Assembly: GCA_965228735.1 (NCBI GenBank)
Contig: OZ245838.1
Coordinates: 2,080,001 to 2,144,000, forward strand
Source of the DNA: Planctomycetota bacterium
GTDB taxonomy: Bacteria > Planctomycetota > UBA1135 > UBA2386
DNA length: 64,000 nucleotides
Direction of reading: 5' to 3'
Made by a program: the position numbers and the translations under genes. Shown here in pieces: positions 53,662-57,403 of this stretch. The notes beneath the pieces were generated by a model, which did no database searches, was not told where the DNA came from, and saw only the letters and a list, made by a program, of their open reading frames with translations. How positions within the stretch are numbered: position 1 is the first letter of the stretch; every line of letters starts with the position of its first letter.

Positions 53662-54543
53662 TCAGTTCGTCAGACTGCCGAGCCAGGCATCCGCGAAGCG
53701 GTCGCCCGCGGCCGGCGCGTGGCGGAAGAACAGCGACGGCTCCACGAGCTCGAGCTCCACGAGCCGCGGCCGGTCGTGCTCGTCGACGAGCCAGTCGGCG
53801 CGCGCGTAGAGCAGGTCGACGTCGAGTTCGGCGCTGGCCGCCGCGACGGCTCCACGCGCGAGAGCGAGTTCGGCGGCGCTCGGCTCCCATGGCTCGTCCT
53901 GCCCGCCGTAGTCGTCCTGCACGCGATAGTCGCCCGCCTGGGGCACCTTGCGGACGCAGTGCGACAGTTCGCCGCCGAAGAACATCGCGGACGTCTCACC
54001 GTGGCTCGTCACGCTCTTGACGAACGGCTGCAGCATGTAGTCGCGCTCCCCGATCACGGCATCGATGTGCGACTGGCCGCGCGCGATGCCGGCGTGGTCG
54101 AAGCTGAACCGGACGGTGCCCTCCGCGGTCGCGCCGACGCACGGCTTGAGGAAGCCTTCGCGGCCGCCGATCGCCGTCGTGAGCGCGGCGAGATCGGGGC
54201 GACTGCCGCGATCGAGCCACACGGTCGGCACGGTCGCGACGCCGGCCTTGCCGAGCGCGCGCAGGTAGCTCTTGTGCGTGTTCCACTCGACGACCCGCGC
54301 AGGGTTAGCGAGTCGCGTCACGGCCTCGACCCGGCGCGCCCAGTCGCAGAACGCCCCGACCCGCGCGGTGTAGTCCCACGTCGTCCGGATCAGCACGGCG
54401 TCGTAGCGCGCCCAGTCGACCGTATCGTCGTCCCATATCGCGTGCTCGAACGCGACGCCGCGCCGCTCCAAGGCCGCGTGGAACGGTCGATCGTCGGCCT
54501 CGTGGGCCGGCAGTTCCCGGCAGGTGGCGAGCGCGAGCAGCAC
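53662..54543 (-). CDS. ATP-grasp protein (RimK / glutathione synthetase-like)
   Basis: Motifs IRTTWDY, WNTHKSYL, FLKPCVG, MLQPF, DYRVQDDYGG, YARAD and ELELVEPSLFF; start GTG 54543. Confidence 0.85.
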   Translation of the reverse strand: MLLALATCRELPAHEADDRPFHAALERRGVAFEHAIWDDDTVDWARYDAVLIRTTWDYTARVGAFCDWARRVEAVTRLANPARVVEWNTHKSYLRALGKAGVATVPTVWLDRGSRPDLAALTTAIGGREGFLKPCVGATAEGTVRFSFDHAGIARGQSHIDAVIGERDYMLQPFVKSVTSHGETSAMFFGGELSHCVRKVPQAGDYRVQDDYGGQDEPWEPSAAELALARGAVAAASAELDVDLLYARADWLVDEHDRPRLVELELVEPSLFFRHAPAAGDRFADAWLGSLTN

Positions 54544-54606
54544 GCGATGAGCATGCCCGTGCCCGGCCCGAGTTGCCACCGCGGCGAGCCGCCGTAGACT
54601 GCGCCC

Positions 54607-54957
54607 GTGAACATCCCGCACGGCATGCGCCTCCTGGTGCACGGACGCGCCGACTTCATGCGCGAGGTCGCCGACGCGATGAAGGCCGCCGACATCCGCG
54701 TCGTGACCGGTCCGATCCCGGGCGGCGGCTGAAGCCCGCGCGCCTGGCTCGCGGTCGCGAGCGACGACACCGAACGCGCGCAGGCGGTGCATCAGCTCCA
54801 CCTCGATCGCATGGTCCGCCGCGAAGGCGTTCCCGCCTCCACCGGCAGCGAGTGCGCCGACTTCGATGCGGAGGAGACCAGCTGCCCCGCCTGTGCGACG
54901 CCGTTCCGGACGGCCGGCACGACGCGATGTCCGGAGTGCGGGCTCAACTTTGGCTGA
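54607..54957 (+). CDS. Candidate selenoprotein: 116 aa, in-frame TGA (codon 42) and C-terminal double-CxxC zinc ribbon
   Basis: Translates as MNIPHGMRLLVHGRADFMREVADAMKAADIRVVTGPIPGGG-U-SPRAWLAVASDDTERAQAVHQLHLDRMVRREGVPASTGSECADFDAEETSCPACATPFRTAGTTRCPECGLNFG. GC3-biased codons on both sides of TGA 54730-54732; TAGACT -10 box 6 nt before GTG; SECIS-like hairpin downstream. Confidence 0.75.
54733..54786 (+). promoter_or_regulatory. Putative bacterial SECIS element
   Basis: Perfect stem GCTCGC (54747-52) / GCGAGC (54757-62) with GGTC loop (54753-56) starting 20 nt after the TGA; further pairing possible with CGCGCG or CAGGCG downstream. Confidence 0.62.
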
Positions 54958-57403
54958 CCGTACCGCTGCAGGTCGCGACCGACTGCCGGGCGCCGCGACC
55001 GCGCGGATCGTCGCGCTGGCCGTCCCGCAGGTCATCCCGTTGGCCATTCTGCGGGCCATTCTCCTGGCCATTCTGGGGGCCGGGGCGCTGCCGGCGCAGA
55101 ACGCGTGGGACATCCCCCACCGCGGCGCGATCGTCTACGACCGTGAGGTCAGGACGTTCGCCGTCTCACCGCCGCAATCGCGCCTCGACGGCGACGTCGT
55201 CGTGGCCGGCGCCGAACGCGGTGGCCACGATTGGCGCTATTGGTCGGGCCCGACGAAGTCGGCGCCTGCCGGATTCGAGCAGCCGGGCTTCAACGACAGC
55301 GATTGGCAGCGCGGTCGCGGCGAGTTCGGGACCAACGTCGCGGAGGCCGCCACGGTCCGCACGTTGTGGAACCAGGAGACGATCTGCCTGCGCACGGAGA
55401 TCGAGCTGCGGCAAAGGCCCAAGGCCCTCGTGTTCGACGTCGATCACGACGACGGCGTCACGATCTGGCTCAACGGCACGCAGCTCGTGAGCAACACGGG
55501 CTACGGCCGCAACCGGCGCTACATCGTGATGGGCCGCGCGCTCGATGCCTGGGACCGCGGCCTCAACCTGCTCGCCGCACGCTGCGTGAACACGGGCGGC
55601 GCGCAGTACGTCGACCTCGAGGTCACCGCGCTCGGCAAGCTTCCGCGCGGGGTCCGGACCCAGCCCGAGCTGCAGGCCGCGCTCACGAGCTCGCTGGATG
55701 GCGCGAACAAGGTCCGCCGCGAACTGTTCGCGGCGTTCCGCCCGCCGGCGTTGCTGCTGCAGGGTGAACTCGACGAGGAACAACAGCGCGTGCGGATCGC
55801 GCCGGCCGACCTCCGCGAGATCGCGTGGTGGATCGCCACGGACCTGTCGATCGGCAGCAGCGGCGGCAGCGTCAAGGCGGACAGCAACCGCATGGCGCGG
55901 CTCGGCGACCTGCTGATCCGCGGCCGCGCGTCGAGCGTGGGCCAGGACGGTTGGCAGACGATCACCGCGCGCGTGCAGAACCGCCGCGAGCCCGACCGCA
56001 GCGAGGACAGCAAGCGATACGTGCAGCGCTTCGTCGTGCCGCACGTCTGGTACGGCTTCGACGGCGAGCTCACGATCCGACGCAAGCTCGGCGCCGCGAC
56101 GCCGACGCCGGGGAAGGATCGGCAGCGGGTGGTCGAGTTCGAGAGCCGCCTCGACGGTCGCATCCTGCAGCGCGAGGACAAGCGCTGGAAGAAGCACGCG
56201 GCCACCGTCGCGCAGCACGAGGTGTGGAAGCTCGGCGCCGTGCGCGACGGGCAGGACGCCGAGTTCCGCGTGCTCGTCAGCCGGTCGATCGAGCGGGGCA
56301 TCGCCCGCCTCAAGGACCAGATCAAGGCGCCGGCCGAGGGCGACACCAAGGCGGAGGCGGCGGACGCCGATCGCACCTACCACACGGGCCGGCTCGCGCT
56401 CGCCCTGCTCGCGCTCGTGAAGGCCGGAGTGCCGCCCGAGGACCCGGTCGTCGCGGCCGGCTACGCCGAGCTGCGCAAGCGCCGCGTGTACGACACCTAC
56501 TCGCTCGGCAACGCGATGATGGCCGTGAGCGCGCTCTACGCGCAGAAGAGCGAGCTCGGCGACCTGAAGCGCGGGCTGCTCGAGAAGCCCGCGCGCCGCG
56601 AGCCGACCGCGGCGGACAGGGAGCTGCTGACGACGTGGACCGCCGAGCTGCTCGACAACGTCGACGACAGCGTCGACCCGGCGTATCTCCTGCGCTTCCA
56701 CTACATCGGCGCCCCCGACTACGACAACTCGGTCAATCAGTACGGCCTGCTCGGGTTGTACGCCGCGCACCTGTGCGGCGTCGAGATCTCGCCGCAGGTC
56801 TGGGAGGCCGCGGCCAATCATCTGCTCGCGTCACAGAGTCCGGACGGCAAACGCCGCAGCGTCACGCTCGTCGACTACGGCACGCTGGCGCAACAGGGCG
56901 ACACCGCTCGCGCCGTCGAGTTCCCGGCGCGGGTCTGCGGCTGGAACTACAAGGAACCGAAGTCCGACGGCGAACTCACGCCGACCTGGGGCAGCATGAC
57001 CGCGGCCGGCATCACCGGGCTCGCGATCTGCGAAGGCGCCCTCCGCGACTATCCGAAGCTGCGCCGGAACAAGCTGTTCGAGGACATCACGCGCGCGCGC
57101 CGCGACGGCTTCGCGTGGCTCGCCGAACACATGACGCTGCGCTGCCACGCCGGCGCGATCGAACGCCAGCCGCGCTGGTTCTACTACTACACCTACAGCC
57201 TCGAACGCGCGGCGCTGCTCAACGGCATCGCGCTGATCCAGGACCGGGACTGGTACTTCGAAGCCGCGATGGTGCTCGCGCTGGCGCAGCTCGAGAACGG
57301 CGACTGGCCGGGCGAACTGGTGGCCGAGGGCCAGGTCGAGACCAACGCGATGGCGCTCCTGACGCTCATCCAGAGCACGCGGCCCGTCATCACCGAGAAG
57401 TGA
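54950..57403 (+). CDS. Secreted protein: galactose-binding-like N-terminal domain plus prenyltransferase/squalene-cyclase-like alpha/alpha C-terminal domain
   Basis: WRYW...FNDSDWQRGRGEFG and DDGVTIWLNG; C-terminal DNSVNQYGLLGL, GWNY, SMTAAG, YYTYSLER and DWY...Q..NGDW. Start uncertain (TTG 54950 or 55040). Confidence 0.7.
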   Translation: MADRTAAGRDRLPGAATARIVALAVPQVIPLAILRAILLAILGAGALPAQNAWDIPHRGAIVYDREVRTFAVSPPQSRLDGDVVVAGAERGGHDWRYWSGPTKSAPAGFEQPGFNDSDWQRGRGEFGTNVAEAATVRTLWNQETICLRTEIELRQRPKALVFDVDHDDGVTIWLNGTQLVSNTGYGRNRRYIVMGRALDAWDRGLNLLAARCVNTGGAQYVDLEVTALGKLPRGVRTQPELQAALTSSLDGANKVRRELFAAFRPPALLLQGELDEEQQRVRIAPADLREIAWWIATDLSIGSSGGSVKADSNRMARLGDLLIRGRASSVGQDGWQTITARVQNRREPDRSEDSKRYVQRFVVPHVWYGFDGELTIRRKLGAATPTPGKDRQRVVEFESRLDGRILQREDKRWKKHAATVAQHEVWKLGAVRDGQDAEFRVLVSRSIERGIARLKDQIKAPAEGDTKAEAADADRTYHTGRLALALLALVKAGVPPEDPVVAAGYAELRKRRVYDTYSLGNAMMAVSALYAQKSELGDLKRGLLEKPARREPTAADRELLTTWTAELLDNVDDSVDPAYLLRFHYIGAPDYDNSVNQYGLLGLYAAHLCGVEISPQVWEAAANHLLASQSPDGKRRSVTLVDYGTLAQQGDTARAVEFPARVCGWNYKEPKSDGELTPTWGSMTAAGITGLAICEGALRDYPKLRRNKLFEDITRARRDGFAWLAEHMTLRCHAGAIERQPRWFYYYTYSLERAALLNGIALIQDRDWYFEAAMVLALAQLENGDWPGELVAEGQVETNAMALLTLIQSTRPVITEK

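Follow-up and report, generated by a model that had tools for sequence, protein, structure and literature searches.

The described selenoprotein closest to the gene considered here is 'hypothetical protein DG', newly predicted with deep-Sep in Desulfosediminicola ganghwensis in 2025 (PMC12013277) and listed with the motif GUxG, U being selenocysteine, in a 2026 review (PMC13188914). On the RNA side, the nearest comparison is fdhF of Escherichia coli K-12, in which the TGA is followed, after 18 nt, by GCA-GGTC-TGC. In bacteria, the selenocysteine insertion sequence (SECIS) is a hairpin just 3' of its UGA, with G/U in the apical loop, and the accepted distance between the two is about 16-37 nt. 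Here we describe a small gene of a Planctomycetota bacterium (UBA1135; UBA2386), found within a stretch of 64,000 nucleotides (assembly GCA_965228735.1, contig OZ245838.1, positions 2,080,001 to 2,144,000 of the forward strand), hereafter the window. The gene lies on the plus strand at 54607..54957 of the window, and its codon 42 is an in-frame TGA (54730..54732) with a SECIS-like hairpin just downstream. Sequence comparisons make it very probable that this UGA is read as selenocysteine (Sec), and that the locus is a true selenoprotein gene, so far unannotated, whose SECIS looks functional.

Comparison with selenoprotein DG and fdhF

The protein obtained by reading through the TGA matched the NCBI profile NF049953, 'zinc ribbon-containing (seleno)protein DG', with residues 35-116 aligned to profile positions 91-172 (E = 7e-13). 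The window protein has 116 residues and the profile 172 positions, the match being confined to the C-terminal half of the latter. The DG sequence given in PMC12013277 was compared by eye, not aligned with a tool. In that sequence, U lies 76 residues from the C-terminus within the motif GC-x3-U-GG, and in the window protein it lies 75 from the end. Both proteins display a G-U motif, a hydrophobic strand, and a C-terminal CPxC...CPxCGL(R/N)FG. The predicted Sec of codon 42 would correspond to the Sec of the DG motif GUxG. The motif of the window protein, GGGU-SP, corresponds to GUxP, and many of its relatives display GUGG, GUGP or GUGT; the C-x3-U-G motif of the published DG sequence also occurs in distant planctomycete members.

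The two proteins also differ. The DG sequence has an extra N-terminal CxxC...CxxC ribbon that the window protein does not have. The window protein lacks the Cys that DG carries upstream of Sec, and it comes from a different phylum, being encoded in metagenome-assembled genomes (MAGs) of Planctomycetota. Furthermore, the DG family, as described, has Cys homologues, whereas the TGA-free relatives of the window protein carry Trp. Collectively, these comparisons suggest that the window protein is a distant, shorter planctomycete variant of the DG family, although not a member of it by the NCBI cut-off. The original prediction, made from the letters of the window alone, held that the Sec form might be new to this lineage. 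For Planctomycetota that may be true, but the wider family had already been predicted in 2025 as DG and is covered by NF049953. The main text of the 2026 review contains no word beginning with 'Planctomyc', and the examined part of the BSepDB supplement contains no 'protein DG' entry; this database may already list planctomycete members.

In fdhF as in the window gene, a hairpin capped by a GGUC loop closely follows the UGA within the coding sequence, the loop starting after 18 and 20 nt, respectively, in agreement with the similar distance that the original prediction gave for fdhF. Unlike in that comparison system, the hairpin of the window gene is conserved only as a 6-bp stem, and its binding by SelB is a prediction. 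A further comparison is provided by the deiodinase-like selenoprotein genes of the same genome and order. Their SECIS elements have a GC stem of 5-9 bp and, in 22 of the 29 loci from relatives, a GGUC loop 21 nt after the UGA (17 nt in another 2). The deiodinase-like proteins are unrelated to the window protein, and their Sec is catalytic (T-U-P-P-F).

Coding frame of the small gene

The frame starts with a GTG at 54607 and proceeds for 41 codons, ending in ...VVTGPIPGGG, until it meets the TGA at 54730-32. Past this point, it continues for 74 in-frame codons, which include the CPAC...CPEC ribbon, up to a terminal stop at 54955-57 that is also a TGA. All the elements from which the original prediction had been built (frame, internal TGA, ribbon, stop, hairpin and a TAGACT box upstream) are present as it described them. 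It had also anticipated that standard ORF calling would split the gene: the listing made with translation table 11 breaks it into open reading frames (ORFs) of 41 and 56 amino acids.

Relatives of the read-through protein were found in 37 of 61 related genomes, which represent many genera of the family to which this bacterium belongs as well as several more families in its order. Scanning one genome per species added 66 loci, nearly all of them from Planctomycetota MAGs. A typical planctomycete-type gene with its neighbours was also found in a MAG labelled Luminiphilus sp. (Pseudomonadota), on contig JBERSB010000288.1 (L085), which was probably mis-binned.

Within the 34-member subclade that includes the window gene, pairwise diversity at the first, second and third codon positions was.28/.22/.43 before the TGA and.24/.20/.42 after it, third positions being the most variable on either side. 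Meanwhile, the GC content of third codon positions (GC3) of the small gene was 0.95 upstream and 0.86 downstream of the TGA. The similar figures on the two sides indicate that both halves are under protein-coding selection in the same frame. The first five codons after the TGA already display a coding pattern of variation (.18/.26/.42), and no start codon was found between the TGA and the conserved RAWLAVAS stretch. The 18 codons that separate the TGA from the next start codon, RAWLAVAS included, are conserved as protein. Judged by these patterns, the window gene is a real and conserved gene of 116 codons.

Codon 42 among homologues

We compared 67 distinct homologues from Planctomycetota genomes, four of which, all TGA genes, carry one extra codon. 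The column of codon 42 was TGA in 48 of them, TGG (Trp) in 14, and a Cys codon in 5, so that both a conserved TGA and Cys homologues, which the original prediction had named as the states to look for, were recovered. Among the 30 best genomic homologues, 25 displayed a single TGA at this same column. The recurrence of TGA in 48 of 67 homologues rules out both an assembly error and a nonsense mutation confined to this genome. Since the terminal stops of the homologous genes are TGA or TAG, TGA has not been reassigned genome-wide.

The five Cys forms of the family are L095, L096, L097/P0053, L100 and L103. About 12 further and more distant CxxxC(C) forms were retrieved from metagenomes and aligned by eye only; the wider spread of Cys forms rests on a word-based search and two contig scans. 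Distant planctomycete members display C-x3-5-U, and the Cys forms display C-x3-4-C at the same column. The original prediction had ascribed to similar small proteins a Cys-rich loop of the GCCG type together with the same terminal ribbon. A GCCG loop is indeed present in two Deltaproteobacteria-type loci (L114 and L115), but the closest TGA-free relatives carry Trp instead.

On the maximum-likelihood tree of the 67 genes, the distribution of Trp requires at least five changes, at least three of which are forced by strongly supported branches. The Trp forms made up a single group in no bootstrap tree, and Trp and Sec forms are interleaved within the subclade of the window gene. In a large collection of called proteins, nearly all of 52 homologues carry Trp, a figure biased by the fact that TGA forms are not called full length. 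We considered whether alternation between TGA and TGG could be a general habit of this clade, and rejected it: the deiodinase-like family shows no Trp forms, 54 of its 57 matches having TGA, while two of the other three miss the Sec site and one carries Cys.

Conservation of the hairpin

The hairpin occupies positions 54747..54762 of the plus strand. It is composed of the arm GCUCGC (54747-52), the loop GGUC (54753-56), and the arm GCGAGC (54757-62), in codons that encode (W)-L-A-V-A-S. Between the A of the UGA and the first base of the loop there are 20 nt. The evidence for this element consists of extreme conservation at synonymous sites, not of rich covariation. The hairpin codons are kept throughout the TGA forms (CTC 48/48, GCG 45/45, GTC 48/48, GCG 47/47) and also throughout the TGG forms (CTC, GCG, GTC and GCG, each 14/14). 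Elsewhere in the gene, equally conserved columns of Ala, Pro, Gly, Leu and Arg display codon entropies of 1-1.65 bits. Third-position diversity was 0.012 in LAVAS versus 0.42-0.45 elsewhere. Among the 14 TGG genes, the amino acid identity of which goes down to 50%, it was 0.000 in the five hairpin codons versus 0.397 in the remaining ones.

A 6-bp stem with a GGUC loop at 20 or 23 nt was detected in 61 of the 62 TGA and TGG forms. The loop is GGUC in all 61 of these core-bearing genes, and the spacing is 20 nt in 57 of them and 23 nt in the four with an extra codon. The conservation of the hairpin among TGA-bearing homologues, which had been put forward as a check, is thereby confirmed at the level of synonymous sites. 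Covariation is sparse because the core hardly varies. The stem changes that preserve pairing were C-G to U-G (3 genes), U-A to U-G (14 genes), and a double change of G-C to U-A (L044); mismatches were U-C in three genes, C-C in one, and one in the 3' arm of L086. Only the 6-bp stem is conserved, and a longer lower helix or a bulged U is not evident in all members.

The Cys forms display a different pattern. In L095, the peptide AWLAVAD is retained, and its codons GCC GAC leave a stem of only 2 bp. The hairpin is absent from the other four Cys forms, in which the peptide has also changed. No hairpin core was found in the 12 distant CxxxC(C) forms, which were placed by eye.

Selenocysteine machinery and other selenoprotein genes

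The genome encodes a tRNA-Sec (76.6 bits) with the anticodon TCA (UCA), along with selA (454.3 bits), selB (336.6 bits) and selD (367.1 bits). All four scores exceed the curated cut-offs, and the search for selA, selB, selC and selD suggested by the original prediction was therefore positive for each of them. The selA gene is present in 60 of the 61 relatives, including all five TGG-form genomes. In the genome of the window, selA lies next to selD, in the same orientation, at a site outside the window (G000:C1:121367-123694; L017, L018). The selD gene is itself a selenoprotein gene, with a GSG-U motif and its TGA at C1:122801. Hairpins downstream of this TGA look different and have no GGUC loop, indicating that not all SECIS elements of this genome carry GGUC.

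We scanned the genome for open frames with a TGA ahead of a hairpin that has a GGTN loop and a stem of 6 bp or more. Out of 50 matches, three looked like real genes by their translation: the window gene and two deiodinase-like genes. In another match, which was discarded, the TGA is the actual stop codon of a DnaE-like gene and the hairpin resembles a terminator. The deiodinase-like genes, L052 (G000:C1:2173844-2174959) and L053 (G000:C1:2538284-2539531), lie outside the window. They match PF00837 (T4_deiodinase) with 77-79 bits and encode N-terminal EF-hand repeats, an apparent signal sequence, and the motif FGSYT-U-PPF, with U at an in-frame TGA. In each SECIS, a GC stem of 6-7 bp carries a GGUC loop located 21 nt past the TGA, and the stems of the deiodinase-like family display compensatory changes from GCC/GGC to GCU/AGC.

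We take the hairpin of the small gene to be a SECIS because the genome holds the Sec machinery, because its design is shared with the deiodinase-like genes and fdhF, because the Cys forms have no hairpin, and because the protein is homologous to NF049953. The central claim of the original prediction, that the UGA is decoded as Sec, is likewise supported by the conserved TGA, the invariant hairpin, the Sec machinery and the Cys homologues. According to the mechanism that we propose, SelB carrying Sec-tRNA(UCA) would bind GCUCGC-GGUC-GCGAGC, 20 nt downstream of the UGA, and would deliver Sec once the UGA enters the ribosomal A site. The product would consist of a small beta-alpha-beta-beta-alpha domain, whose beta2-beta3 loop bears Sec at its tip, and of a linker leading to a C-terminal zinc ribbon with four Cys. 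For the window gene, Sec insertion, SelB binding, the start of transcription, and the biochemical role are what we infer from these data.

Evidence against Sec and alternative explanations

Several observations weigh against this interpretation. The fold energy of positions 54725-54790 is ordinary (z = +1.37), since 186 of 200 shuffled sequences folded as well or better. An Rfam scan of positions 54500-55100 at E <= 10 returned only chance matches to microRNAs and snoRNAs, and no SECIS family. The hairpin region of the window has 70% GC, and as this fold energy is ordinary for such DNA, the window alone cannot set the hairpin apart from chance; the comparative data do. One TGA form, L086 (contig NYVR01000089.1), has a broken core, with GAG in place of GCG and the peptide AWLAVES. 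It is the only such case, and its mismatch could be a sequencing error, the mark of a decaying copy, or a tolerated mismatch. The score against NF049953, 48.8 bits for the read-through protein and 43.4 bits in the genome search, does not reach the cut-off of 130; the Cys relative P0053 scores 69.3 bits against the same cut-off. The window protein has no Cys near Sec, hence no classical redox pair. The closest TGA-free homologues carry Trp and not the usual Cys, as would be expected if tRNA-Trp read the UGA. Finally, as the hairpin is also conserved in TGG forms, its role cannot be only the rescue of a stop codon.

The Trp of the TGA-free homologues and the missing Cys near Sec are among the grounds for the strongest rival explanation, which we nevertheless consider unlikely. 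It postulates that the UGA of codon 42 is read through by a near-cognate tRNA-Trp, perhaps with help from the hairpin, that the full-length protein contains Trp, and that the TGG forms are constitutive versions of the same gene. Such read-through would explain the interchange of TGA and TGG (at least five times on the tree, at least three of them forced), and it agrees with the Trp of the TGA-free close homologues, both the 14 genomic ones and nearly all of the 52 called proteins, as well as with a protein that has no partner Cys near position 42. Yet it leaves unexplained why the form, loop and distance of the hairpin are those of the deiodinase-like SECIS of the same genomes. TGG forms would need no stimulator, yet they keep the hairpin perfectly. 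Read-through by tRNA-Trp also sits poorly with the C-x3-5-U of distant members and the C-x3-4-C of Cys forms at the same column, and with the relation to DG, a family described as predicted selenoproteins that have Cys homologues. Our literature searches, which were not aimed at that question, turned up no bacterial example of Trp read-through driven by a hairpin. The original prediction had named Trp in homologues as a finding that would speak against Sec. Trp forms do exist, 14 of them genomic, but Sec is not refuted by them, as TGA is widespread and the Trp forms keep the hairpin, which the Cys forms lack.

True termination is far less probable. The TGA would then end a peptide of 41 residues, and the sequence downstream would be a separate gene (starting at GTG 54787) or a remnant, left by a nonsense mutation or an assembly error. 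The split into ORFs of 41 and 56 amino acids and the use of TGA as the terminal stop of this same gene are compatible with termination. Against it stand the TGA at the identical column in 48 distinct genomes, the conservation as protein of the 18 codons that follow, with a coding pattern of variation, and the single predicted domain that folds across the TGA with a predicted local distance difference test (pLDDT) score of 88-96 nearby. Least probable of all, if only by a little, is that the element of 12-16 nt is not a SECIS and follows the TGA by coincidence, serving for instance to bind the encoded zinc-ribbon protein itself or some other regulator: its retention in TGG forms, which need no stop recoding, and the scarcity of true covariation (one double change in 61 genes) would suit such a role, but its spacing to the codon is fixed and in frame, its loop is identical to those of the deiodinase-like and E. 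coli fdhF SECIS, and no Cys form has it, not even L095, in which the peptide is preserved.

UGG forms and possible wobble decoding

The retention of the hairpin in TGG forms means that the Sec model needs an addition, namely a role for the hairpin at UGG as well. We considered whether the genomes with TGG forms had lost the Sec machinery, and rejected this: selA is present in all five of those checked, and tRNA-Sec(UCA) in four of the five. The exception is G012, a genome of 69% completeness, in which none was detected. Among the matches at E <= 1e-8, none was a tRNA-Sec with a CCA anticodon.

A precedent comes from engineered E. coli, in which SelB and the native tRNA-Sec(UCA) read a UGG that precedes a SECIS, yielding a mixture of Sec and Trp products and no truncation (Xu et al. 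2013, PMC3834832). As described there, this was an overexpression system that needed extra selA, selB and selC, and the authors stated that they were aware of no earlier description of such decoding (PMC3834832). The planctomycete TGG forms share with that set-up the UGG codon, an intact bacterial-type SECIS, and a native UCA anticodon. They differ from it in that the E. coli case was engineered, whereas decoding here would be natural and is suggested by the conservation of the hairpin in 14 TGG forms. We found no natural case of SECIS-directed decoding of UGG as Sec in our literature searches.

Based on these comparisons, we tentatively raise the possibility, which for now we regard as more doubtful than probable, that natural wobble decoding makes UGA and UGG near-equivalent Sec codons in this planctomycete family. 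Where the codon is UGG, Trp-tRNA would compete with the Sec that SelB delivers through U-G wobble. Evolution would then have toggled repeatedly between an outcome of 'Sec or truncation' at UGA and one of 'Sec or Trp' at UGG.

Predicted structure and possible function

An AlphaFold2 model folds the whole chain as one unit (mean pLDDT 83, and 88-96 around residue 42). It comprises strands at residues 7-14, 32-37 and 45-51, helices at 15-27 and 52-72, a weakly predicted linker, and the ribbon at 90-116. The predicted N-terminal beta-alpha-beta-beta-alpha domain thus covers residues 7-72 (54625..54822, plus strand), with codon 42 in the beta2-beta3 loop. The C-terminal CPAC...CPEC zinc ribbon is encoded at 54883..54939 (plus strand), and its four Cys (C93, C96, C108 and C111) are invariant in our alignment (A2). 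Pfam zinc-ribbon models matched below their cut-offs (PF13248, 16.7 bits versus 27; E of 0.005 for the whole protein).

Foldseek returned no match at E <= 0.001 in the PDB. Weak matches to PII/PstA/GlnK/ACT-like structures were obtained, with E of 0.016-0.1 and template modelling (TM) scores of 0.35-0.39, and the beta-alpha-beta-beta-alpha order of the model is compatible with such a fold. If this resemblance is real, residue 42 would lie in a loop equivalent to the T-loop of PII. As distant members carry a Cys 3-5 residues before Sec, the family sequences suggest, with low confidence, a loop-borne site for selenylsulfide redox chemistry or for the binding of a chalcogen or metal. The zinc ribbon is perhaps a docking module. 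In the subclade of the window gene, which has lost this Cys and tolerates Trp, the role of the residue may be non-catalytic or may have changed.

Promoter and gene neighbourhood

A sigma-70-like promoter precedes the gene at 54573..54600 of the plus strand, with a -35 box TTGCCA (54573-78), a spacer of 16 nt, and a -10 box TAGACT (54595-600). TTGCCA-16-TAGACT is the sole site of this type within positions 54350-55150, and shuffled sequences gave 0.0. In 9 of 10 near homologues, the TAGACT is retained at a distance of 6-8 nt from the start codon. The TAG within it, an in-frame stop codon, sets the upstream limit of the ORF. As the -10 box ends 6 nt ahead of the GTG, the mRNA of the small gene would be leaderless or nearly so.

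Synteny around the gene is kept in many relatives. Among 91 loci searched, 35 have the gene of a 524-aa protein upstream, and in 35 the gene of an 845-aa secreted protein follows downstream in the same orientation. An ATP-grasp gene is present in 25, on the opposite strand. In the window, this divergent gene occupies positions 53662-54570 of the minus strand, and its best NCBIfam match is the D-cycloserine synthetase DcsG (208.6 bits versus a cut-off of 360). Other related loci lack the ATP-grasp gene and retain the flanking genes, so that this gene looks like an insertion into a conserved synteny.

Downstream, a long ORF on the plus strand (54866-57403), which follows the small gene in 35 of the 91 loci, encodes a secreted-looking protein that belongs to no Pfam or NCBIfam family. 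Conservation of this ORF sets in near 55100, so the ATG listed as its start (54866), where it overlaps the small gene in a different frame, is unlikely to be the real one. Other long open frames also overlap the small gene, at 54390-55113 of the minus strand (483 and 126 aa) and, in another frame, at 54573-55490 of the plus strand (305 aa). These are artefacts of high GC content, rich in Arg, Ala and Pro, except for the true ATP-grasp part of the 483-aa frame. In a genome from another family of the order (G040:C1:3783371-3784260, minus strand; L039, L164), a deiodinase-like selenoprotein gene is followed, after about 50 nt and in the same orientation, by the small gene, an adjacency that hints at a functional link between the two.

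Significance

These findings extend the selenoprotein predicted in 2025 in Desulfobacterota to a shorter form, in another phylum, that has lost the partner Cys. The NCBI family model scores the selenoprotein gene of the window far under its cut-off, and calling with table 11 splits it; the same gene has probably been missed or truncated in dozens of Planctomycetota genomes. The small gene family also provides a natural test of the Sec machinery at UGG, as TGA and TGG alternate at least five times among its members while the SECIS remains invariant, and the SECIS is gone in the Cys forms. Wobble decoding at UGG, if true, would make this family the first natural example in which a SECIS directs the native tRNA-Sec to recode a Trp sense codon. 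Surveys that consider only TGA/Cys pairs would then undercount selenoproteins, and one sense codon would have two meanings in a wild organism.

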